Part shown: one piece after another, positions 9,648 to 60,963 of the stretch
Position numbering within the stretch: position 1 is the stretch's first letter
Layout of the letters: each line of letters opens with the position of its first letter
Assembly: GCF_044704955.1 (NCBI RefSeq)
Contig: NC_091992.1
Span: 88,040,001 to 88,104,000, forward strand
Direction: 5' to 3'
Source: Pristiophorus japonicus
Taxonomy: Eukaryota
Length of the DNA stretch: 64,000 bases
The notes under the pieces: generated by a model
What the model was told of the DNA's origin: nothing
Databases searched by the model: none
Seen by the model: the letters and a program-made list of their open reading frames with translations, nothing else
Position numbers and translations under genes: made by a program

Positions 9648-12600
9648 ACATAGAAACATAGAAAATAGGTGCAGGAGTAGGCCATTCGGCCCTTCGAGCC
9701 TGCACCGCCATTCAATGAGTTCATGGCTGAACATTCAACTTCAGTACCCCATTCCTGCATTCTCTCCATACCCCTTGATCCCTTTAGCCATAAGGGCCAT
9801 ATCTAACTCCCTCTTAAATATATCCAATGAACTGGCATCAACACTCTCTGCGGTAGGGAATTCCACAGGTTAACAACTCTCTGAGTGAAGAAGTTTCTCC
9901 TCATCTCAATCCTAAATGGCTTACCCCTTATCCTTAGACTATGACCTGGTTCTGGACTACCGCAACATTGGGAACATTCTTCCTGCATCTAAGCTGTCCA
10001 GTTCCATCAGAATTTTATATGTTTCTATGAGATCCTCTCATCCTTCTAAACTGCAGTGAATACAGGCGCAGTCGATCCAGTCACTCCTCATATGTCAGTC
10101 CTGCCATCCCGGGAATCAGTCTGGTGAACCTTCGCTGCACTTCCTCAATAGCAAGAATGTCCTTCCTCAGATTAGGAGACCAAAACTGAACACAATATTC
10201 CAGGTGAGGCCTCACTAAGGTCCTGTACAATTGCAGTAAGACCTCCCTGCTCCTATACTCGAATCTCCTAGCTATGAAGGCCAACATACCATTTGCCTTC
10301 TTCACCGCCTGCTGTACCTCCATGTCAACTTTCAATGATTGATGTATCATGACACCCAGGTCTTGTTGCACCTCCCCTTTTCCTAATCTGCCGCCATTCA
10401 GATAATATTCTGCCTTCGTGTTTTTGCCACCAAAGTGGATAACCTCACATTTATCCACATTATACCGCACCTGCCACTCATTTGCCCACTCACCTAACCT
10501 GTCCAAGACACCCTGCAACCTTTTAGCGTCCTCCTCACAGCTCACACCGCCATCTAGCTTAGTGTCATCTGCAAACTTGGAGATATTACACTCAATTCCC
10601 TGATCCAAATTATTAATGTATATTGTAAATAGCTGGGCTCCCAGCACTGAGCCCTGCGGCACCCTACTAGGCACTGCCTGCCATTCTGAAAAGGACCCGT
10701 TTATCCCAACTCTCTGCTTCCTGTCTGCCAACCAGTTCTCTATCCACATCAGTACATTACCCCAATACCATGTGCTTTAATTTTTCACATCAATCTCTTG
10801 TGTGAGACCTTGTCAAAAGCCTTTTGAAAGTCCAAATACACCACCTCCACTGGTTCTCCATTGTCCACTCTACCAGTTACATCCTCAAAAAATTCTGGAA
10901 GATTTGTCAAGCAGGATTTCCCTTTCATATATCCATGCTGACTTGGACAAATCCCATCACTGCATTCTAAATGTGCTGCTATTTCATCTTTAATAATTGA
11001 TTGCAACATTTTCCCCACTATTGATGTCAGGTTAACTGGTCTATAATTACCCGTTTTCTCTCACCCTCCTTTTTTAAAAAGTGGTGTTACCTTAGCTACC
11101 CTCCAGTCCATAGGAATTGATCCAGAGTTGATAGACTGTTGGAAAATGATCACCAATTCATCCACTATTTCTTGGGCTACTTCCTTGAGTACTCTGGGAT
11201 GCAGACTTTCAGGCCCCGGGAATTTATCGGCCTTCAATCCCATCAATTACCCTAACACAATTTCCCGCCTAATAAGGATTTCCTTCAGTTCCTACTTCTC
11301 ACTAGACCCTCGGTTCCCTAATATTTCCGGAAGGTTATTTGTGTCTTCCTGCGTGAAGACAGAACCAAAGTATTTGTTTAACTGGTCTGCCATTTCTTTG
11401 TTCCCCATTATAAATTCACCTGAATCTGACTGCAAGGGACCTACGTTTATTTTTACTAATCTTTTTCTCTTCACATATCTATAGAAGTTTTTGCAGTCAG
11501 TTTTTATGCTCTCAGCAAGCTTCCTCTCATACTCTATTTTCCCCCTCCTAATTAAACCCTTTGTCCTCCTCTGCTATATTATAAAATTCTCCCAGTCCTC
11601 AGGTTTTTCTGGCCAATTTATATGCCTCTTCCTTGGATTTAATACTAGCCTTAATTTCTCTTGTTAGCCACGGTTGAGACACCTTTCCCGTTTTATTTTT
11701 ACTTCAGACAGGGATGTACAATTGTTGAAGTTCATCCATGGGATCTTTAAATGTTTGCCATTGCCTCTCCACTGTCAAACCTTTAAGTATCACTCGCCAG
11801 TCTATTCTAGTCAATTCACGTCATACCATCGAAGTTACCTTTCCTTAAGTTCAGGATCCTAGTCCCTGAATTAACTGTGTCACTCTCCATCTTAATAAAG
11901 AATTCTACCATGTTATGGTCACTCTTCCCCAAGTGGCCTCAGACAACAAGATTGCTAATTAGTCCTTTCTCATTACACATCACCCAGTCTTGGATGGCCA
12001 GCCTTCTAGTTGGTTCCTCGACATATTGGTCCAGGAAATCCTCCTCCACCGCATTGCTACCAATTTGGTTAGTCCAATCAATATGTAGATTAAAGTCGCC
12101 CATGATAACTGCTGTACCTTTATTGCACGCATCCCTAATTTCTTGTTTGATGCTGTCCCCAACCTCACTACTACTGTTTCGTGGTCTGTACACAACTCCC
12201 ACTATCGTTTTCTGCCCTTTGGTATTCTGTAGCTCCACCCATACTGATTCCACATCATCCAAGCTAATGTCCTTCTTTACTATTGCATTAATTTCCTCTT
12301 TAATCAGCATTACCACACCACCTCCATTTCTTTTCTGTCTATCCTTCCTAAATGTTGAATACCCCTGGATGTTGAGTTTCCAACCTTGGTCACCCTGGAG
12401 CCATGGCTCCGTGATGCCAATTACATCATATCCGTTAACTGCTATCTGCGCAGTTAATTCGTCCACCTTATTCCGAATACTCCTTGCATTGAGGCACAGA
12501 GCCTTCAGGCTTGTCTTCTTAACGAACTTTGCCCCTTTCGAATTTTGCTGTAATGTGGCCCTTTTTGCTTTTTGCCTTGGGTTTCTCTGCCCTCCATTTT

Positions 12601-13712
12601 TACTTTTCTTCTTTCTATCTTTTGGTTCTGCCCCCATTCTACTTTCCTCTGTCTCCCTGCATAGGTTCCTATCCCCCTGCCATATTAGTTTAACTCCTCC
12701 CCAACAGCACTAGCAAACATTCCCCCTAGGACATTGGTTCCGGTCCTGCCCAGGTGCAAACCATCCAGTTTGTACTGGTCCCACCTCCCCCAGAACCGGT
12801 TCCAATGTCCCAGGAATTTGAATTCCTCCCTTCTGCACCACTCCGCAAGCCACGTATTCATCTGAGCTATCCTGCGATTCCTACTCTGACTCGCACATGG
12901 CTGGTAGCAATCCTGAGATTACTACTTTTGAGGTCCTACTTTTCAATTTAGCTCCTAACTCCCTAAATTTGTCTTGTAGGACCTCATCCCATTTTTTACC
13001 TATATCGTTGGTACCTATATGCACGACAACTGGCTGTTTACCGTCCCCCTTCAAAATGTCCTGCACCCGCTCCAAGACATCCTTGACCCTTGCACCAGGG
13101 AGGCAACATACCATCCTGGAGTCTCAGTTGTGGCCACAGAATCGTCTATCTATTCTCCTTACAATAGAATCCCCTACCACTATAGCTCTCCCACTCTTTT
13201 TCCTGCCCTCCTGTGCAGCAGAGCCACCCACGGTGCCATGAACTTGGCTGCTGCTGTTCTCCCCTGATGAGTTATCCACCTCAACAGTACCCAAAGAGGT
13301 GTATCTGTTTTGCAGGGGGATGACCGCAGGGGACCCCTGCACCACCTTCCTTCCATTGCTTTTCCTGTTTGTCAGCCATCCCCTCTCTGGCTGTATACCC
13401 TTTACCTGTGGTGTGGCCAACTCACTAAACGTGCCATTCACGACATCCTCAGCATTGCGGATGCTGCAGAGTAAATCCACCCACAGCTCCAGTGCCGCAA
13501 TGCGGTCTGTCAGGTGCTGCAGGCGGATGCACTTCCTGCACATGGAGTCATCAGGGACACTGGAAGCATCCCTGACTTCCCACATAGCACAGGAGGAATA
13601 TAACATGTGTCCGAGCTCTCCTGCCATGACTTAACCCTTAGATTAATTTAATTTGGCAACAACAATGCTAAAAGGTTACTTACTGATAAAGAAAAGAAAA
13701 AGAACAACCACT
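9648..13712 (-). mobile_element. Near-full-length CR1 LINE with ORF1 (zinc-finger + SGNH esterase) and ORF2 (APE endonuclease + RT), frameshifted
   Basis: ORF1 13627-12881: C..W...CRKC, PLQNRY, VVGDSIVR, CLPGA, HIGTND; ORF2: [43 protein letters not shown]; 3' tail at 9648. Confidence 0.92.
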
Positions 13713-15076: not shown

Positions 15077-18000
15077 TCACAGGTTGAGACGGTCCGGTGC
15101 TTTACGCTCCCTGGTTGACCGTCTCAGTTCGATTCCGGCCTTGGTTGAATGTGCGGAGTCTGTTGTGGCTGGTGGTTGGATGGCTGACTTGTTGGGGATG
15201 GCCATGGCCATGTCAGGAATTGCAATTCCATTTTTATTGAACAAGTCCGTGATGGAAATTCCGGGTTCACTGATGACCCTTGAGTCCACTGAAGGCTGCT
15301 GGTAGGTTGGTCGGTCGTCGATGGTTTCTTTGTCCAACAGCTCTGGCTCATCTGTGTGCCTCAGCTTTGTTTGATCCATGTGTTTCCTGCAAGTTTGCCC
15401 ATTCTTGAGCTTAATAATAAATACTCTGTTGCTCTCCTTGGCCATGACTGTGCCAGCGATCCACTTGGGATCCTGACCATAATTCAACACATATACAGGA
15501 TCATTAACAGAAATCTCGCATGACACAGTTGCATGATCGTGGTACCCTTGTTGACTCTGTCTTCTGTATTCAACATGATTACTTAAATCCAGGTGTACAA
15601 GAGATAACTTGGTTTTAAAATGTCTTTTCATCATGAGTTCAGCAGGCGAGATGCCTGTGAGTGTGCGGGGTCTTGTCCTGTAACTCAGCAGTATGCAAGA
15701 TAAGCGGGTCTGCAGTGACCCTTGGGTTACTCTCCTCATGCTTTGCTTGATAATTTGTACTGCATGTTCTGCTTGCCTGTTGGACGCAGGCTTGAACGGT
15801 GCTGACCTTACATGTTCTTACTCCTGACTGATGAAGCACGACCCATTGTAGCACACCACTATGTCAGGCAGACCATGTGTCGCGAACATGACATTGAGAT
15901 TCTCCATGGTTGCCGTGGACGTACTGGATAGCGAGGGGATTTGAGTATAGGAACAGGGAGGTCTTACTGCAGTTGTACAGGGCCTTGGTGAGAACACACC
16001 TTGAGTATTTTGTGCAGTTTTGGTCTCCTAATCTGAGGAAGGGCATGCTTGCTATTGAGGGAGTGCAGCAAAGGTTCACCAGACTGATTCACGGGATGGC
16101 AGGACTGACATATGAGGAAAGACTGGATCAACTAGGCTTATACTCACTGGAATTTAGAAGAATGAGAGGGGATCTCATAGAAACTTATAAAATTCTGATG
16201 GGACTGGACAGGTTAGATGCAGGTAGAATGTTCCCGATGTTGGGGAAGTTCAGAAGCAGGGGTCACTGTCTAAAGATAAGGGGTAAGCCATCTAGGACCG
16301 AGATGAGGAGAAACTTTTTCACCCAGAGAGTTGTGAACCTGTGGAATTCTCTACCACAGAAAGTTGTCAAGTCCTGTTCGTTGGACATATTCAAAAGGAA
16401 GTTAGATGTTTGAAGGAAGTTACGGCTAAAGGGATCAAGGGGTATGGGGAGAAGGCAGGTGGGGTACTGAGGTTGCATGATCAGCCATGATCATATTGAA
16501 TGGCGGTGCAGGCTCAAAGGGCCGAATGGCCTGCTCCTGCACCTATTTTCTATGTTTCTATGTTTCTATGACATGATTATGCATTCTATCCACTTCGAAT
16601 AAGCATCCACCACCACTAAAAACATCTTGCCCAGGAAGGGACCTGCAAAATCTACATAGATCCTGGACCAAGATTTGGATGGCCATGACCACAGACTCAT
16701 CAGTGATTCCGCTGGTGCTGTGCTGAGCTGCATGCAGATGTTGCATTGATGCACGCATGCTTCCAGCTCAGAATCAATTCCTGGCCACCATACATGGGAC
16801 CTGGCGATGGCCTTCATAATCACTATACCCGGATATGTGCTGTGTAACTTACGCACAAACTTCTCTCTCCCTTTCTTAGCCATTACAACTTGACTGCCCC
16901 ACAATATGCAATCTACTTGAATAGACAGTTCGTCCTTGCGACGAATGTTTTGTTTGGCCTCCTCGCATATTAGCTTAGGTATGGCTGACCAATCCCCTTT
17001 GAGGATGCAACCCTTTACCACCGATAATATCAGGTCCTGGCTGGTCCAGGTCTTAACTTGTTGAGCCGTGACAGGGTACATTCATTTTCAAAAGCATCCA
17101 TGATTAACATTAAATCTGCCGGTTGTGGCATTTCCACCTCCGGTGTGGGCAACGGCAACCGGCTCAAAGCATCGGCACAATTCTCTGTGCCAGGTCTGTG
17201 GCGAATGACATAATCATAGGCAGATAATGTCAGTGCCCACCTTTGGATGCGGGACGAAACGTTGGTATTGATACCTTTGCTCTAAGAAAACAACGAAATG
17301 AGCGGCTTGTGATCGGTTTCTAATTCAAACCTCAGACCAAACAGGTATTGATGCATCTTTTTAACACCGTACACACACGCTAAACCTTCTTTTTCTGCCA
17401 TACTGTAGGCTTTTACTGCTTTAGACAAACTTTTGGATGCATACGTGACAGGTTGAAGATTCCCCGACTCATTGGCTTGTTGTAACACGCAACCAATTCC
17501 ATATGACGATGCATCACAGGCCAAAACTAAAGGTTTACATGGGTCATAATGTACCAGCAGCTTGTTCGAGCAAAGCAGATTGGTGGCTTTCTTGAAAGCT
17601 CTGTCTTGCAACGCGCCCCACACCCAGTTGTTGCCTTTTCTCAATAGCACGTGCAGTGGTTCAAGTAAGGTGCTCAATTTAGGTAGCAAGTTACCAAAGT
17701 AGTTGAGTAGACCCAGGAACGAATGCAGCTCCATCACGTTCTGCGGCTTGGGTGCATTCTTGATGGCTTTGGTTTTCACGTCAGGAGGTCTCCCGAGGAA
17801 TTCGACCTCCGGTGCCATGAAAATGCACTTCGAGCATTTAAGTCTGAGCCCCACTCTATCCAGACACAGTAGAACCTCTTCCAGGTTGTTCAGATGTTCC
17901 TTGGAGTCACGACCGGTGATCAGGATGTCATCTTGGAACACGACGGTTCTGGGAACGGACTTCAGTAGACTTTCCATATTCCTCTGGAATATTGCTGCAG

Positions 18001-19712
18001 CTGAGGAAATTCCAAACGGGCACCTGTGGTAAATAAACAGTCCTTTGTGCGTGTTAATGCACATAAGTCTCTTTGACGCCTCGACCAACTCCTGTATCAT
18101 ATAGGCCGACGTCAAGTCCAGTTTTGTGAATGACTTCCCTCCGGCTAGCGTCGCAAACAAGTCATCAGCCTTCGGTAATGAGTACTTATCTTGTTTCAAA
18201 ACCCTGTTGATCGTAGCCTTGTAGTCTCCACAGATTCTGACTGTGCCATCAACTTTTCAGCACAGGAACAATGGGCCATTCATTAAATTTGACCGATGAT
18301 ATGATCCCTTCACGCAGGAGTCTGTCCAGTTCAATTTCAACCTTCTCCCTCATCATATATGGCACTGCCCGAGCTTTATGATGGATGGGTCTTGCATTTG
18401 AGTCCACGTGGATCTGCACCTTGGCTCCCGTGAAGTTACCGATACCCGGTTCGAACAGCGAGGGGAACTTGCTCAATAATTGGGCACATGTATCTTCCTC
18501 CGGTGACAACGTCTTTATGTCGTTCCAGTCACATCTGATTTTCTCCAATCAGATCCTGCCGAGCAGCGTTGGGCCATTGCCTGGAACAATCCACAATGGT
18601 AACTCGTGAACCGCACTGTTATACATTTGTGCATTGCCAATCACTATCAGTTCTTTGGTGTACATGCGCAGCTTGGCATTAACAGGGCTCAGCTTGGGCC
18701 TCACAGTCTTAGTATCCCACAGCTTATTAAATGCCCTCTCATTCATGATTGATTGACTCTCCCCTGTGTCCAGTTCCATCAATACCGGTATCCCGTTAAA
18801 CTTCACGTTAATCAAAATTGGTTAATTCTTGGTTATGAAAGAGTACAATCCATACACTTCCTCCTCTGGCATCTCGGATTGCGTATCCGGATCTGCGCTA
18901 GTCTGACTCTCATGCTCCATGTGATGTGTCGCAGCTCGCTTGCTTATCTGCGGACACTTGCGCTGGAGATGCCCCACTCTCAGACAGCCTTTGCAACTAT
19001 ATTACTTAAATCTGCACTGCTAGTGCCAATGATTTCCCCCACAACGCCAACATGGAGAAGTCGGATACATTCCCGCTGGCGGACTTTAGACAGCCACAGG
19101 TTTCGCGAACGCAGCCGGATGGGCCCTACCATGTGCCGCTGTGCCAAACGCCGAATCAATCGCATTTACAGTACTTGCCGAAGTTTGGTTCTTCACCGAT
19201 ATTTGCTTTAAACTCCTGTCCATCGTCATACATGATTGAGCGATCTGGGTGGCCCTTTTTAAATCCAACTCCTCCACCGTCAGAAGTTTGCACAGGATAC
19301 CGATAACAAAGAAATCCCGCAGCATGTCTGCCAACCCCGTCCCAAACTTGCACGGTCCCGATAGACGTCTCAGGTCGGCAATGAATTCCGTCATGCTCTG
19401 GCCCTCCGATTTAAAGTGTGTATTAAACCTGTATAGCGAGATGATGATGCCGTCGTCTGGCTTGAGATGCTCTCGTGCCAATGTACACAACTCCTCGTAC
19501 GTTTTCTCTGTTGGATCACTCGGCATCATCAGTAGATTGTTTATCAGACCGTAGATCTTTGTACCGCACACAGTGAGGAACATGGCCCGGCACCGATCTG
19601 CATCATCGACCCCCTTCATTTTGTTGGCCACGAAGTACTGGTTCAAACAGCTCACAAAATCTTCCCAATCTTCTCCCTCCATGAATCGCTTTAAAAATCC
19701 AATCATGCTCAT
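15077..19712 (-). pseudogene. Gypsy gag-pol, frameshifted and interrupted by a CR1 insertion
   Basis: ORF pieces 19086-19712 (gag), 18549-18815 (PR), 18249-18548, 17282-18199 (RT-RH), 16566-17081 (IN N-term, VDFAGP, VDAYSKW), 15077-15739 (IN C-term). Confidence 0.85.
15928..16570 (+). mobile_element. 5'-truncated CR1 inserted into Gypsy integrase
   Basis: IARGFEYRNREVLLQLY...WNSLP; (TTCTATGT)n tail; removing it restores integrase ...IIMS|STST... Confidence 0.9.
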
Positions 19713-20057: not shown

Positions 20058-21644
20058 GGCCTCAAGTTTCCACATGATTTGCTCCTGATTTTTAGGAGCA
20101 ACTGGTGTAGAACGGAGTATCTTAGAAATCGGAATTCTCGTCATTTAGTTTGCTCCAGTTCTAGTCAGTTAGAACAGTTTCACTTTGGAACAGAATTTTT
20201 TTTCAAAAGGGGGCGTGTCCGGCCACTTATGCCTGATTTCAAAGTTTCGTGAGTGAAAACTTACTCCAAACTAACTTAGAATGGAGTAAGTGAAGATTTT
20301 TATACGCTCAAAAAAACCTTGTCTACACTTTAGAAAATCAGGTTACAAATCAGGCGTAGGGAATGGTGGAGGGGGGGGTGTTTAAAGGGAAGTTTACAAA
20401 CATTAAACACTTCAGTTTTACAAATAAAGAGCCATCATCAATAATAAATGATAAATACATCAATAAATCAACCAATAAATCAATCAAAAAAAATTAATAA
20501 GAAATAATTTTAAAAAATCAATAAATAAAACATTTTCTACTTACCGACTGCAGCACCGGGAGCCCTCCAACAGTGTGCTGGGATGCCCCCCTCAGTTTGT
20601 CTCTGTCAGTGTCTCTATCTCTCTGTCTGTCTGTGTGTCTCTCATTCTCTGTCTGTCAGTGTCTGTGTTTCTGACAGCGAGTGGAGGGGGTTAGAGGGAG
20701 AGAGGGGGGGAGCAGAGGGAGGGAAGGAGGAGGGGGGGAGAAGGGGGAGGGATGGGGGAGGGATGGGGGAGAAGGGGGTAGGGGGTAGAAGGGGATAAAG
20801 GGGAGAAGGGAGAGAAAGGAGATGGGGGAAAGGAGATGGGGGAGGGGAAAGGAGATGGGGGGGAAAGGAGATGGGGGGAGAAGGAGATTGCGGGGGGGAA
20901 GGAGATTGGGAGGGGGAGAAGGAGATTGGGGGGGGGAAGGAGATTGGGGGGGTGGGGGGGAAGGAGAAGGGGGACGGAGGCTGAACGGGCCGGGCCCGAG
21001 ACTTCGGGCAGGGCCCGTCCCCAGCACCAGATTTACAGGTAGGTGGCATTGGGTCGGGTTGGGGGGGTGGTGGGAGGGAGGTCAGTTCGGGTCGGGGGGA
21101 GGGAGGGAGAGAGAGGGAGGTCAGGTCGGGGGGAGGGAGGTCAGGTCGGGGGGAGGGAGGTCAGGTCGGATCCAGTCCGGGGGCGGGGGGTGGGGGAGCG
21201 GGTGTTGGGTCTGGTCCGGGGGCAGGGGGGGGGTGGGGGAGCGGGTGTCGGATCCGGTCCGTGGGGCAGGTGGGGGGGAGCGGGTGTCGGGTTCGGTCCG
21301 GAGGCGGGCGGGGGGAGGAGGGAGCGGGAGTCGAGTCGGGTCGGGAGGAAGTAGGAGCTGGCCGTAGGAGGAGCCTTATTCACGTAGCCCCAGTGAGGCC
21401 ATTCGGCCAGGGCTAGGGGCTGCATGCTTCGGGCCCCTCCCACTGTAGCGCGCATGTGCAGAGGTTCCGGCACTGCTTTCAGCGCAGGGACCTGGCTCTG
21501 CCCCCTACAGCTCTTGCTGCACTGCGCCGAGGGCCAGAGGACCTGCAGGGAGGTGGAGAATTTTTTAGGCGCACTTTGTGGCGCGAAAAACGGGCGTCCA
21601 TGTCGAGACTGCGCTGTTCTAGGCGCGGCTCGATACCTGGGCCC
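20058..21644. mobile_element. Harbinger-type MITE (GGGCCCAAGTTTCC family), copy A
   Basis: Degenerate TIRs GGCCTCAAGTTTCC / ..ACCTGGGCCC, 3-bp TSD CCT on both sides, interior homologous in inverted orientation to 39541-41501. Confidence 0.85.
20685..20975 (+). repeat. Polypurine G-rich tract with ggagat(t)ggggg..aa repeats
   Basis: Near-pure G/A with many G-runs of 4 or more. Confidence 0.85.
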
Positions 21645-25460: not shown

Positions 25461-26455
25461 CCGCAAGCAATTCATTTCAATGGGAGGCTTACGGCATGGT
25501 CACAAATTTTTACTTTTGTTGAGGCCAATGGTGGAGGCAAATCGTCCCGCAATTGGTGGAGAATTGGAACTCATGACGTATATTGGGGGAGGGTTTCAAT
25601 TAGCTCGGCAGGGGATAGGAACCAGAGCTGGAAATGGAAGATAGAAAATTAGTAACTGAGTTTGGAAGGTAGAGCAAAGGCAATAAAATAGATAAAAAAG
25701 GTAGTTAGGCCGTGATTAATGGTCAATATGTCAATGCAAGGATTCTAGTGAATAGGCCGGATGAGCTGAGGGCACAGGTAGAGACTACGGGCTAGAACTT
25801 CCACTTTTTTTTGCATGCTTAACACCCACTTAACACCCATTTTGCCATTGAAATGACGTATAATGCTCATATATCGCCCATTTTGGCACAAAATGGACAC
25901 TGATGGGCACTTTCAGGAAACTTATCGGCGAGCGTAACTTTCCCTATATGCTTAAAGCCGGGAAAAGATATTACCACCCGCCCAATTTTTTGGGGCGGAA
26001 TCATCAGAATGGGCGAAATCAACGCCCATATCAGCCAGCGTTACTTTCCACATGGGATTAACGCTGAGATTCAATAATACTGCCCGCCCACTTCTTTTTG
26101 TCGTAAAGAGCAGATTTGGCGAAACTAACGTCCAGGAGATCACCCACCGTCACTTTCACCACCTCGCACACATGTCGGCCAAAATATTGCTCGCCCAAAA
26201 AAACGGCCATAAAAAGTGGAATTGTTCTGAACTCACGCCAGCGGTGTGGCTGCCATTTTTTAAATCGCAGGTCGCTTCATTCAAAAGGCTGCTTCAACTT
26301 CGGGAGAGTTTGCATTGACTCTGGAGTGTTTCTCAGGTGAAGTGGCCATCTCAACGTATATATTTTCAGACTCTGGACTATTGGGCGTTTACTCTAGGTG
26401 TATTTTAGTGAAGAAATCATTGTTTCTGATCAATCGCTATTATACTTTCATAGCA

Positions 26456-27661
26456 ATGGGGCCAGCCATTTCTCAGCCTGCATCGATTAATACGCAGATG
26501 CTGCAGAGTGCAGATGGCTCAATGTGTGATGCACATCATTATGTGCCCAATTTAAGACATGCAAGAATGAGGAGGAGGGCCAGACCGTACACACTGCACA
26601 TGTACAAGGAAAAGAGGTCTTACCTCAACGTGTCCGACCACACCTGCCTTCGGAGTCTGCGCTTCCACAAGGTGGTGATCAATGAAATATGTGAGCTCAT
26701 TAGGCCACATATGCAGCCTGCCATCAAGACATCAGTGTTGTTCGAGGTCAAGGTCACCGCGGCACTGTCTTTCTCCCCGTCCGATTCCTTTCGGGCCTCC
26801 GCGGTCGAGATTTGCCCTCTGTCTCTCCATGCCACACATCGCTGCATTAGACAGGTCACAGAGGCCATGTACACGAGAAGGATGGACTTTATCAGCTTCC
26901 CCTTGACCATGGAGGCTCAGACTGACAGGGCTGGAGCATTCTACCACATTGCTAAGTTCCCCAGGGTACAGGGAGCTAGTCAATGCACTTACATCACCAT
27001 GCGGCCACCTTCTCAGGGCCCGGAGCGTTTTCATAACAGAAAAGGTTTTCACTCCCTGAAGGTCCACCTAGTTGTCGACCACAACCAGATCATACTGGCA
27101 GTGAATGCGAAATGTCCGGGCACCTTCGTTAAGGCTCACATCCTGCGTGAAAGTGCTGTCTCTGACATCTTTAAGAGTCAGTCACAAGGACAATGCTGGA
27201 TGCTTGGTGATAACCGATATGGCCGAACCACCTGGCTGATGACCCCACTGCGTGACACCCACACCAAGGCCGAGAAGCGATACAACCGGAGCCACAGAGA
27301 CACGCACAATGTGGTCCATAAAACAATAACTGTGCTTAAGCAGCGCTTCAGATGTCTGGACCAGTCAGGAGGGGAGCTACAATACAATCCTGAGCAAGTA
27401 GGTAAATCCGTGGTCATGTGCTCCATGCTGCACAACCTGGCTATCAGGAGAGGCCAAGAATTGCCAGAAGGGACTGATGCTCCACCTCAGGAGAGAGAGG
27501 AGGAGGACGACGAGGGGCTGGACGCTGACCTAGGGCCAGACAATCAGGCTGGCTATGCAACCACGCCCATGACCCCCTCCAGACCGCAGGAAAGGGCCCA
27601 TGATGGCTACATAGCTGCAAGACTCGTACCTGAGGAGCTGATAGCTGAACGATTTGCCTGA
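26456..27661 (+). CDS. Harbinger (HARBI1-like) transposase ORF, uninterrupted, 401 aa, catalytic residues substituted
   Basis: GCAATGG start; VKVTAAL, FPRVQGA, NRKGFHSL, LGD, WLMTP, YNRSH, LKQRFRCLD.SGG.LQY, MLHNL, acidic tail; conserved D/D/E positions read Q176, K226, H288. Confidence 0.75.
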   Translation: MGPAISQPASINTQMLQSADGSMCDAHHYVPNLRHARMRRRARPYTLHMYKEKRSYLNVSDHTCLRSLRFHKVVINEICELIRPHMQPAIKTSVLFEVKVTAALSFSPSDSFRASAVEICPLSLHATHRCIRQVTEAMYTRRMDFISFPLTMEAQTDRAGAFYHIAKFPRVQGASQCTYITMRPPSQGPERFHNRKGFHSLKVHLVVDHNQIILAVNAKCPGTFVKAHILRESAVSDIFKSQSQGQCWMLGDNRYGRTTWLMTPLRDTHTKAEKRYNRSHRDTHNVVHKTITVLKQRFRCLDQSGGELQYNPEQVGKSVVMCSMLHNLAIRRGQELPEGTDAPPQEREEEDDEGLDADLGPDNQAGYATTPMTPSRPQERAHDGYIAARLVPEELIAERFA

Positions 27662-28099
27662 GTTAACATTGATGTGAGTGACAACGCTGACACACTGCTG
27701 TGTGTGTGCAACTCTGACATCAATGGTGTCCATCATCTTGGTGCCAGTTAAAGTTTACGTTGGTTGCTGTTAAGTTGTATTTAATCCTTTCGTGGTAAAG
27801 AATCACCAGTGTGTAATGGTCTAGCTATCTGAGACAATGCGCAACAAGGTTATGTTCAATTAAAAAAAATTATACCAACATTGGTCTGAACTCATAAGAA
27901 TCACAGGCAATAACACCCAACCCCGGCCCGCACCCCACTTTTTCCACTATTGCCATCAATCAAATGTTCAACATGTTCAGCAACACAGAATATAAAGGCA
28001 AAGCGGGAGCGTGGTCCCCAGCCCCCATACGTTATAACAAATTGCATACAGCCAGATGCAGATGTAACACAGCCATCAGCTGTGCACATGCACCTCACT

Positions 28100-29897
28100 T
28101 TCCTTCCCCCCTCCGCTTCTTCTCCCCACCTTTATCCCTTCCCCTCCTTGCTCCACGGCGCCTGGTTGAGGAGTTCCGCAGGCGGTGCCGTATTGAGGGG
28201 GATGTAGGCAGATGCAGTGGCTGCATGGGTACGGGAGCAAGGGGTGCCGAGGGGGCAACATTCTCTGATGCAGACGCAGGATCTTGGTCCTTGCTCTCAT
28301 CTGTCGTTCACAGTGGTGGTGCGGAACATAGGGGTGGAGTGCCATGCTCTGGGACCACTGGGAGACCTGTGTCAGCAGTGTTCCTGGCTATCGCATCTAG
28401 GGCCTCCACCATCCGCAGAATGTACTCAGGCATGGTGGCCAGCTGTCGGGATATGCCCCCCAATGCTTCGATGAGCTGGTCATCAATGTCTACAGTCCTC
28501 CTGTACAACTGTACCATCTCTCCGCTCTCATGTATTGCTCGTGGAACAGACCTGCCGCGTCCACGAGGCCTCTGCGAAGTCGGCGCCACCCTGACGACAA
28601 ATGGGGTGCCCTGTTGTGAGCTGCTTGGGGCCAGTACCTCCAGATTGGAGGCGGGAATGACCGGAGGATCACTAGCTGGCCTTCGGGTGGAATGGCTTCT
28701 GCAGCGTGGCGATGCAGGTTCCTCGAAGTCTGCGCTCTCATCCATGGAGACAGACCCAGCGGATTGACGGGCACGAATCGGAGCTCCTCAGCAGCAGATG
28801 TAGGATCGTCCAGAAAGTTGGGCCCCACGCCCCACCTTCTGGCCTCTGTGGTCCTGCCTGGGGCCACGCTGCTGGCTGAGCTGTAAAACACAAATTAGGT
28901 TATTAGAGGAGAAGTGGGTGCTAGGGTCACAAGGTGAGTCCAGTGCTGTAAACAGCATATGCACGACAAAAGCACAACCACTCTCAAAATCATCACAGAC
29001 ATCACATTTCATGACTATCAACACATTAGCATTGTAATAATTTTCAATAGGCCAGCATTATTTCTATGACAATTTTAGAAATCATCTATCATATAACTGG
29101 TTGGATACGAGTGGGTGTAGCATCTATTGACTTTACATTACATAATGGTGTAAGCTTTACTCACATGGCATCACTTCAGGGTCTGCAGATGCTTCCGTGG
29201 CTGTCCGGGTGTGCTTCCCCACGAATGTGAGCACCCGCTCCTCCATCTCAGTATTGTCGCTAGGAATTGGTGACCCCCCAACCTGTTCGCCTCTGCACGG
29301 ACCTCATCATCGATAGCGTCTTCTGTAAAAGGTGACAGGACAACATGGCATGAGATCATTGCGTGATATCATTGCTAGCTACTGTCACAGAGACTGTAAC
29401 ACATAACCGACAGATGTAATCATGTTTATCATGAAAATGATCATTCTTGACGTAAAGACGTGTCCCATGACTGCAGGCTTTGAGTAAAACATTCCTGGTG
29501 AAAGTGAAAGACCTCATATCTGCTGATTGTCACTCATGACTGTTACAAATCAAATTATATAAATACATAAGTACATGTAAATAAATGTAATACTTACTCT
29601 TGCGGATTCCACAAGTTAGTTCCATTGTTTGCGGCATTGGTTGCCCTTATGAATCTCTTTGGTCGCCGACGAGACCACCTCTGCTATCTCGGTCCATATC
29701 CTCTGGTAGGCCTTTGGGGTGGCTTCCCACACCCTCCCTGTGTCAAAACACCCCATAGTGACTTGACCTCCTGCAGGAGGGAGGCACTTGCCTCATCTGA
29801 GACCCACCCTCCTGGCTCTTTTGCGCCCTCCCACCTCACTGTTCTCTCCAGCGTCAGTCTCCATAGCATGCTGTGATGCCTCCTCCTCTCCCTCCAT
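28100..29897 (-). pseudogene. Harbinger Myb/SANT-like DNA-binding gene, three exons, decayed
   Basis: Exon1 29897-29598 (RKRARR, SLLQEV, IWTEIAEVV, QCRKQWN*L; 2 frameshifts + stop; donor gtaagt), exon2 29322-29165 (RRTG, EMEERV), exon3 from 28880; 3' end approximate. Confidence 0.75.
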
Positions 29898-32089
29898 TAT
29901 AGGCCAAATTCAGGCAAATATGTGGCTGGTAACAGCTAATTTTTGTTTCCCTACTTGCTGTGAAGCTCTAAAACCTCCATCCTTCCTCCCAAAGCAGCAA
30001 CACCACACCCAGACATTCCTTCCATCTCTCTGAGCTCCTTCTCTCTCTGTCTCATCTTCTGCGCATGTCATGATGAACCTTCACCTCCTGAATGCGAGAA
30101 TCGAGCGTTGCCATGCCATTGCTAAGGATGGCGACACTTTATGGCAGAAGGTTAGTAAGATTTAACGCTACCGCCCATTTCATATCATACGCGGTAACGC
30201 CCATTTAAAAAAATGGGGACTAGATGCTTTGAGAATGGGCAAGAAGCCAACAATCTGAAAACCCATTTTTACCGTCCACGCCGGAAATAAGGCCCATTTT
30301 TGGGCAATAAGCACAAAAGTGGAAAATCTAGCCCATAGAAATACGATATCATACCTATTACTGAAACATGGCTGAAAGGGCAGGAATGGCAGCTCAATAT
30401 TCCTGATTACAGAGTTTTCAGATGAAACAGAGAGGGAGATAAAAAAAGGAGGGCTGGGGTGTCGCAATACTGCTTAAAGAAATAATTGCAGCTGTGAGGA
30501 GGGATGCTAAATTTAGAAGGATCATCAAATGAGGCCATATATGTTGAACTGAAGAACAAAAAAGGGGCAATCCCACTGCTGGGAGTGTATTGTAGACGGC
30601 AAATAGTCAGAGGGAGAGAGAAGAGCGAAAATGTAAGCAAATTTCTAAGTAGTAGAAAATCAATAGGGCAGTAATAGTAAGGGATTTCAACTACCCTAAT
30701 ATTAACTGGGATAAAATTGGTGTAAAGGGTACACAGGGTGCAGAATTCTTAAAATGCATTCAGAAGAACGTTTTTTAGCCAGTATGTAGCAAGCCCAACA
30801 AGAGAGGGGGCAAATAGATGGGCAGATTATTGGTAAAAATCTGAGGAACAGTATTAATCATCATTTAGAAAGTCACGGATTAATCAAGGACAGTCAGCAT
30901 GTATTTGTTATGGGTAGATCGTGTCTTGACTTGACTGAATTTTATGAGGAGGTATCAAAGAGGGTCAACGAGGGTAGTGCATTTGATGTAGTCTACATGG
31001 ATTTGAGCAAGGCTTTTGACAAGGTCCCACATGGCAGAGTGTTCAGAAAAATGAAAGTGCATGCGATCCAAGGGCAAAATTGGCTCAGTGGCAGGAAGCA
31101 AAGGGTCATGGTCGATGGGTGTTTTTATGACTGGTAGGCTATTTCCAGTGGGGTTTCGCAGGGTTCACTACTAGGTCCCTTGCTTGTTGTGGTATATATC
31201 AATGATTTAGATTTCAATTTAGGGGGTATGAATAAGAAATTTGCCAATAATATAAAAACTGGCCGTGTGGTTGATAGTGAGGAAGAAAGCTGTAGAGTGC
31301 AGGAAGATATCAATGGACTGGTCAGGTGAGCATAAAAGTGGCAAGTGGAATTCAATCTGGAGAAGTGTGAGGGGAGGGCTGACAAGACAAGGGAATACAC
31401 AATAAATTGTTGGATACCGAGAAGTGTAGAGAAACAGAGGAACCTTGGAGTGCATGTCCACATATCCTTGAAGCTAGGATGACAGGTAGATAAGGTGCAT
31501 AGAATATAAGAATAGGGAGGTTATGCTTGAAGTGTATAAAACACTAGTTAGGCCACAGCAATGGTCACCACATTATTGGAAAGATGTGATTGCAATAGAG
31601 AAGATACAGAGAAGATTAATGAGGATGGTGCCAGGATTGGAGAATATTAGCTATAAGGAAAGATTGGATAGGCTGGGGTTGTTTCCTTTTGAACAGAGGA
31701 GGCCGAGATGAGACTGAATTTTGTGTTTAAAATTATTAAGGGCCTGATAGAGAGGATAGGAAGGACCTATTTCCCTTAGCAGAGAGGTCAATAATTGCCA
31801 GGGGGCATAGATTTAAAGTAATTTATAGAAGGATTAGAGAGGAATTAAGGAGAACTTTATTCACCCAGAGGGTGATGCGGGTCTGGAACTCACTGCCTGA
31901 AAGGGTGGTAGAGGTAAAAACCCTGATCACATTGAAAAAAGTACTTATGCACTTGAAGTGCAGTCACCGATAGAGCTACCAATCAAAAGCTGGAAAGTGC
32001 GATTTTTTTGAGTGGATTCTTTTTTTGGTTGGCATAGACAAGATGGGCCAAATGGCCTCCTTCTGTGCCATGAATTTGTATGATTCCAG

Positions 32090-33199
32090 GGGCCCAAGTT
32101 TCCACATGATAAAAAACGGGTGCCCTTCCGAGCTGGGCGCCCGTTTTTCGCATCTAAAACGACGCCGGAAAAAAAATGAGCAATTCTGGAGCGCTTTGCA
32201 GCTCCTTGTCTGCTTGGCGCGGCACCCAGGGGGGCGGAGCCTACACTCAAGGCGATTTTGTAAGTGGGAGGGGGCGGGTACTATTTAAATTAGTTTCTTT
32301 CCTGCCGGCAACGCTGCGCATGCGCGTTGGAGCGTTCGCGCATGCTCAGTGTGAAAAAAACATTGGCACTCGGCCATTTTTGTAGTTCTTTGTAGTTCTT
32401 TGTAGCTGTTTAGTTTTTGAACATTTTTTAATAGAAGTACATTGCCATCAGCACAGAGGCTTCTTGTAGCAGTGAGAAGGGTGCAGGAAGCCTCAGAAAG
32501 TTGAGGCAGCCGTTTCCCGACGACCTCCCCCTTTTGCCGTCGGGAAATGGCTCCTCAATTTCTGAGGATTCCTGCAGCCTTCTCTCTTTCCCGCCAGCCG
32601 TCTGGAACGGCTCCATTCCCTACCCCCACCCCCCATGTTCGGTCGGCTCCCTCCCTCCCCCGCCGCCCGTATTCGGTCGGCTCCCTCCCCCCCCCCCCCG
32701 CGTTCGGTCGGCTCCCTCCCTCCCCCGCCGCCTGCATTCGGTCGGCTCCCTCGATGGTTTATCTTTTCTTTGCTTATAAATGTTTATTCAGGTTGGATTT
32801 ATTTGTATAATATTTGTATAAGTATAAATAAGGATTGATTGTAGAATTTAATGAGTTCCCTTCCCCCACTCCCCCCCCCCACCTCGTTCTGGACGCCTGA
32901 TTTGTAACCTGCACCTGATTTTTTAATGTGTAGAACAGGTTTTTTCAGTTCTACAAAAATCTTCACTTGCTCCATTCTACTTTAGTTTGGAGTACATTTT
33001 CACTGTGGAAAGTTTCAAATCAGGCGTCAGTGGCCGGACACGCTCCCTTTTGAAGAAAAAATTCTGTTCCAAAGTAGAACTGTTCTACCTGACTAGAACT
33101 GCAGAAAACAAAATGTGGAGAATTGTGAATTCTAAGATAGTCCGTGCTCCACCAGTTGCTCCTAAAAATCAGGCGCAAATCATGTGGAAACTTGGGCCC
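32090..33199. mobile_element. Harbinger-type MITE (GGGCCCAAGTTTCC family), copy B
   Basis: Perfect 21-bp TIR GGGCCCAAGTTTCCACATGAT; right ~450 bp near-identical to 41050-41501; flanks cag/tat (TSD not conserved). Confidence 0.88.

Positions 33200-37709: not shown

Positions 37710-60963
<23,254 letters not shown>

Follow-up and report, generated by a model that had tools for sequence, protein, structure and literature searches.

At 26456 to 27661 of the window analysed here, a 64,000-nt stretch of the genome of the shark Pristiophorus japonicus (NC_091992.1, positions 88,040,001 to 88,104,000), lies an uninterrupted reading frame of 401 codons for a Harbinger transposase that has lost most of its catalytic residues. 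Has the frame stayed open as a domesticated host gene, or is this a transposon copy like any other, and if so how did its family come to spread a transposase lacking an active site?

The open frame and its element

The intronless frame starts at an ATG in good context (gcaATGG), as a sequence-only reading of the locus had claimed, and matches Pfam DDE_Tnp_4 (PF13359) with E=9e-24. A structural model of the protein was confident over residues about 50-340 (mean pLDDT 85); a PDB sequence search returned no hits, and a fold search of the PDB gave nothing at E≤0.001, with DDE transposases as weak hits. The codons at the four conserved acidic sites read CAA (26981, Q176), AAG (27131, K226), GAT (27209, D252) and CAT (27317, H288), and the corresponding residues in about 160 homologues are D, D, D and E in 130, 118, 134 and 129 of them, respectively. 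Codons and homologues thus agree with the earlier reading that three acidic residues have been replaced and only that of the GD motif is left. The argument then added, that each replacement took two nucleotide changes, is true but uninformative, because intermediate codons occur within the family (Table 1).

Terminal inverted repeats (TIRs), also seen in that reading, bound an element that carries both genes expected of a PIF/Harbinger transposon, the DDE_Tnp_4 transposase and a Myb/SANT protein whose three-exon frame is open in the family majority; PF13873 scored above its cut-off on the Myb protein of two intact family copies, L156 and L443. In the given copy, Myb exon 1 holds the two frameshifting indels and the stop described before, plus a 15-nt deletion that keeps the frame; the other two exons are broken as well. 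The 3-bp flanks of the given copy are TAC and ATA (25786-25788 and 30335-30337). Among 59 elements with both ends, flanks were identical in 23, differed at one position in 18 and fell outside these two groups in 18; they fit a palindromic target motif, and mismatched flanks may reflect ends swapped between insertions.

The sequence around the element resembles what we take to be a single LINE of CR1/L2 type, and the first motifs of what is presumably a myosin gene appear at 38274, about 8 kb downstream of the element. Elsewhere in the window, a 1.1-kb element at 32090-33199, whose 21-nt inverted ends match perfectly and begin with GGGCCC, and a related arm at 20058-20378, are probably other non-autonomous Harbingers. 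Decayed reverse-transcriptase frames lie at 15077-19712 (RT/RNase H at 17282-18100) and 10081-12637 (RT at 10081-10749).

Table 1. Features of the element that carries the transposase frame, in window positions
Feature	Position	Strand	Comment
Harbinger DNA transposon, class M (transposase dead, Myb retained)	25789..30334	+	4546 bp; TIRs; colinear with full-length family copies
Left arm including TIR	25789..26225 (boundary approximate)	+	lockstep sharing with class T
Transposase ORF, 401 aa	26456..27661	+	catalytically dead by sequence; frame open by chance in given copy
Q176, first catalytic D site	26981..26983	+	family path GAC>CAC>CAG; CAA a private silent change
V225-K226, HD motif site	27128..27133	+	family state DE; V and K private to given copy
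D252, retained	27209..27217	+	DKG to DNR throughout family
H288, catalytic E site	27317..27319	+	family path GAG>CAG>CAC; CAT private
Myb gene exon 3	28095..28880 (low end approximate)	-	two 1-nt deletions and a stop in given copy
Myb gene exon 2	29165..29322	-	1-nt insertion in given copy
Myb gene exon 1, SANT domain	29598..29897	-	broken in given copy; open in family majority
Right arm including TIR	30066..30334 (boundary approximate)	+	lockstep sharing with class T

A DNA search of the same genome gave 9215 candidates, the best 39 non-self matches being 90-92% identical. The given copy diverges by 5.4% from the majority of 29 sisters, and its dN/dS of 0.72, against 0.64 pooled over those sisters, reveals no constraint on it; its rare changes comprise 18 nonsynonymous (N) to 8 synonymous (S), or 14:6 at invariant codons. 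Frame survival simulated at its divergence had a probability of 0.083 x 0.354 = 0.029, and an ORF of at least 385 aa was present in 4 of 75 full-length, DNA-sampled copies of its class, termed M (the frame was open in 10 of 40 M copies from protein-based samples, which favour open frames). The openness that had seemed remarkable is no more than chance provides: the given copy is an ordinary decaying transposon, of a kind in which about 3% of copies are expected to retain the frame.

That the locus, lying near the myosin gene, is instead a domesticated host gene, for instance the chromatin factor suggested earlier, would account for a 401-codon frame lying open beside a broken Myb gene. We reject this reading and hold it highly improbable: the private changes of the copy are neutral where purifying selection since insertion would be expected, a survival probability of 0.029 is set against at least 1851 copies (exact motif matches) in a family of thousands rather than a single or low-copy gene, the TIRs are intact, and 4 of the 75 DNA-sampled sisters are likewise open. 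Better candidates for domestication are an inverted pair of divergent Harbinger transposase ORFs (L062:1315-2478 and L070; G000:C2 13.83-13.84 Mb), in which the first catalytic D has become A; the L062 ORF has 387 aa and matches the given family at about 44%. Loci L061-L090 include at least two further Harbinger families with DDE intact and cores at 62-70% at the amino-acid level, one of them younger (2.3% divergence).

Four classes and the stepwise loss of the active site

In full-length alignments about 1.6 kb of Myb sequence is missing from the closest live relatives. The family falls into four classes. A full-length parent, P, with DDE intact and Myb present, gave rise to T, in which DDE is intact and Myb deleted, and to M, in which Myb is present and the transposase lost E288, D226 and then D176; the trunk of M later deleted the transposase to become class D. 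The whole transposase is absent from D, the majority frame of its Myb gene is open, and D continues M's trunk, so that transposase-only and Myb-only elements with common ends descend from one parent. Position-ordered samples of 30 loci each bear this out: those with the HD motif comprised 23 T with the Myb deletion, 3 full-length P and 4 unresolved, and those with the DE motif 20 that run on into Myb, none with the Myb deletion and 10 unresolved. Exact matches numbered 3653 for the HD motif, 1851 for DE and 1383 for the D junction. The latest left-arm motif had 1399 matches, 30 of which, when sampled, were about 14 T, 4 M, 10 D and 2 others.

Private divergence is alike across the classes, at 1.1-1.4% (values biased low by best-hit sampling), and they were therefore active at about the same time; P stood at 1.4%, compared with 1.1-1.2% (p=0.05 for P and M, p=0.44 for P and T). 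Partial, misaligned rows (L049 and L032) and duplicates of one locus were left out, as were L196 and L121 from the analyses ranging from class divergence to the SANT tests, L182 from one alignment and L418 from ladder placement. P0002, considered as a second dead subfamily, proved to be one more diverged copy, with the next hits at 65-70%.

The active site was lost family-wide, one base change at a time, as source elements succeeded one another in a ladder. Among 133 M copies, a class defined partly by the catalytic-site motifs themselves, residue 176 was Q in 96, H in 19 and D in 6, residue 226 was E in 126 and D in none, and residue 288 was Q in 104, H in 24 and E in none; nearly all of 19 P and 49 T copies retain all four acidic residues. 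The catalytic residues required of an autonomous Harbinger are thus kept in P and T and lost in class M and the given copy. E288Q, H225D/D226E and G254R came first, followed by D176H, D176Q, K253N and Q288H. The given element sits on a late rung (position 0.109), just below class D. As to whether its replacements are shared by a subfamily, a check that had been proposed, Q176 and Q/H288 are family states and K226 is private (the family has E).

The family tree is a nested ladder rather than a mosaic, and mosaic conversion tracts were not seen in the transposase. No special C-to-G mutator need be invoked for the source lineage, the spectrum mostly reflecting a lack of CpG decay, and directional CpG gain or loss was not seen. 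Family-wide, the source lineage lies up to 13% from the parent with private divergence flat near 1.2%, and sources therefore evolved many times faster than inserted copies.

Selection on the retained genes and exchange of arms

T and M/D each retained a gene under constraint. The core of the T transposase has an ω of about 0.25, with no N changes in 14 active-site codons, and the SANT domain in M and D together has 7 N to 10 S (ω 0.28, p=0.016). In M, purifying selection also continued to act on the transposase after catalytic loss, except in the active site. With private changes as the reference and after exclusion of alleles also found in T or P, the core ω of this transposase was 0.23-0.41 (p 8e-6 to 0.02 over six filters); against noncoding rates of the same lineage it was 0.37, where Myb exon 3 gave 1.07 by the same method. 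The deficit of amino-acid changes holds at all four stages of the ladder, including that after loss of D176. In M, the 14 active-site codons, picked after the changes had been seen, took 10 N, which is close to neutral, and the other 175 invariant codons took 22.5 N to 38.5 S. The active-site rate fits neutrality, so positive selection for killing the active site was discarded. Along the trunk, about 118 changes included no stop or frameshift against roughly 7.6 expected by a rough estimate. The suggestion that this is a trans-mobilised subfamily whose protein was selected for fold and not catalysis is supported, at the level of the family only.

All copies are old and decayed, and at codon 254 half of 14 basal copies carry a stop of CpG type. 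The deficit, too, has its limits. It was absent from a crude first test (stem 85 N to 41 S vs private 2285:1123), which pooled the ends and the active site and used a looser control, and it is weaker once CpG-prone columns are left out (p 0.01-0.1 for the invariant codons taken alone). The transposase has a synonymous rate 2.4 times that of noncoding sequence and a nonsynonymous rate equal to the noncoding one, and the raised synonymous rate could account for part of the deficit. Separately, Myb codons about 270-330 (window about 28310-28540), which are helical, were hit repeatedly along the M ladder, with 32 N to 10 S; this ratio is neutral, yet the stretch may be a drifting interface.

A neutral active site within a constrained fold could also arise if the dead transposase was useless but expressed, and if misfolded or truncated forms tied up Myb or live transposase, so that only well-folded dead forms persisted until the gene was cleanly deleted. 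This is the main rival, because D later dropped the gene, and we judge it unlikely while taking it seriously. The gene is intronless, and D became the trunk, outnumbering M by 10 to 4 in the latest left-arm sample, as such avoidance of damage would predict; D's success is, however, explicable by its shorter length alone. Changes abolishing binding, or an early stop, would on this account also have been harmless or favoured, yet none was fixed among the trunk changes.

T and M have nearly all derived alleles of their ends in common, and few of the interior. Within the first 380 bp of the left arm, 29 derived alleles are common to T and M (T 36, M 31; chance about 1), comprising 4 of 4 at the tip and 25 over positions 61-380 (T total 32, M total 27; chance 0.9), and the right arm has 20 in common (T total 24, M total 26); the transposase has just 11 (T total 69, M total 156). 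Arm state follows each class's own interior ladder (rho 0.83-0.95), and 24 arm alleles found in late copies of T and in D are absent from M. Two of 20 D-junction loci (L437 and L430) are D/T recombinants, changing from D to T within the spacer, with both genes missing. Since the scattered arm matches are too many for parallel mutation, we infer that T and M/D exchanged terminal arms by recombination. The reciprocal, autonomous product of the D/T recombination did not appear in the samples.

Recombination between classes, a parent P of similar age, the raised synonymous rate and the crude first test would all fit T, M and D being passengers of an autonomous source, either P or an unseen derived full-length element, with the synonymous excess due to conversion by unseen live donors or to mutation bias. 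We consider this improbable: the changes are scattered and nested and form no tracts, the signal persists after alleles common to T or P are dropped, neither the 26 resolved HD loci nor the 7 resolved live loci with late arms included a derived full-length element, and all 21 sampled P copies carry ancestral arms.

A proposed split transposon

The reading we favour, with a probability of roughly 0.6, is that the ORF is a neutrally decaying copy of the Myb-carrying half of a split Harbinger, whose classes likely moved each other and whose dead transposase likely once served as a folded, non-catalytic subunit. Harbinger transposition requires both proteins, which can be mixed between elements (Ping, Pong), and the Myb protein binds the ends and carries the transposase into the nucleus (PMC2836001, PMC9179366); in Ping a single D>A lowers excision about 150-fold (PMC2836001). 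T, having kept its active site, would have supplied cutting, and M/D, having kept the SANT domain, would have supplied end-binding, with recombination keeping the ends compatible with a single Myb protein. Such cross-mobilisation in trans is likely, judging from selection on each retained gene, similar ages and common arms. More tentatively, M's dead transposase may still have been made, its fold required within a Myb-transposase complex, and its benefit would have been small enough for the shorter deletion form to take over. Yet the trunk passed to D, from which the dead gene is missing; by then the protein had become dispensable in cis.

The full-length parent is present with overlapping age, so dependence may not have been obligate, and there may have been a rare derived autonomous source. 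It is possible, though on balance doubtful, that this was an obligate two-component vertebrate DNA transposon, whose halves outran their autonomous parent, whose ends were kept by repeated arm exchange, and in which a mobile pseudo-transposase stage was selected as a non-catalytic subunit, the state domesticated in plants as ALP1 and HDP1.

One-gene Harbingers as such are known, the published accounts describing them in sea kraits and a nematode, with none found in teleosts (PMC9179366); what is unexpected in the shark family is the swapped, shared ends and the selected dead transposase. Among the 258 elements of Harbinger-1M_cIno in Caenorhabditis inopinata, 19 are MADF-only and 5 DDE-only (1 intact), by deletion (PMC13668399). 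There, too, DDE and Myb/MADF sit on separate descendants of one parent with common termini, and the article only proposes supply in trans. The shark halves, in contrast, occur in thousands of copies each, the loss of DDE began with point mutations, and measurements cover selection, common arms and recombinants. Harbinger-Snek of sea kraits, another vertebrate case, has multi-copy transposase-only (2263) and Myb-only (452) variants, ascribed to large deletions; unlike the present account, the article text never mentions purifying selection, catalytic or DDE, and no pseudo-transposase stage or arm exchange was found in the passages covered (PMC8437027). A literature search that covered passages of the main articles found no report of a selected mobile pseudo-transposase, or of lockstep arm exchange in a split DNA transposon. 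By analogy only, the unrelated bipartite begomoviruses have two components with different genes and a replication region shared through recombination (common region and regulon grafting; PMC2858149), where in the shark elements it is two transposon arms, about 435 and 270 bp long, that are shared.

ALP1 and HDP1 are likewise Harbinger transposase folds that have lost the DDE triad and have a Myb-type partner, and they act in chromatin complexes (PMC4671723, PMC5339849). The dead shark transposase could by that precedent have worked, on behalf of element or host, as a repressor or an anti-silencing factor, and the source lineage did retain about 50 CpGs. P has the same CpG count, however (50 vs 53), and the gene was later deleted; we think such a role quite improbable. 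ALP1 and HDP1 are, moreover, host genes, HDP1 being described without TIRs and TSD, whereas in the shark the constraint falls on a mobile source lineage that later deleted the gene.

The given locus is ordinary, and its interest rests on the family behind it. In a family of high copy number, a frame that stays open although its catalytic residues are dead is no evidence of domestication. If the split-Harbinger reading is true, thousands of copies provide evolutionary evidence that the halves of a split Harbinger complement each other, a point that the nematode paper treats as hypothetical (PMC13668399), and a transposase can lose catalysis yet remain selected while mobile. With dated intermediates along the ladder, the order in which the steps occurred and the part played by a non-catalytic subunit can be tested directly, and the route to catalytically dead domesticated genes would then begin before capture by the host.
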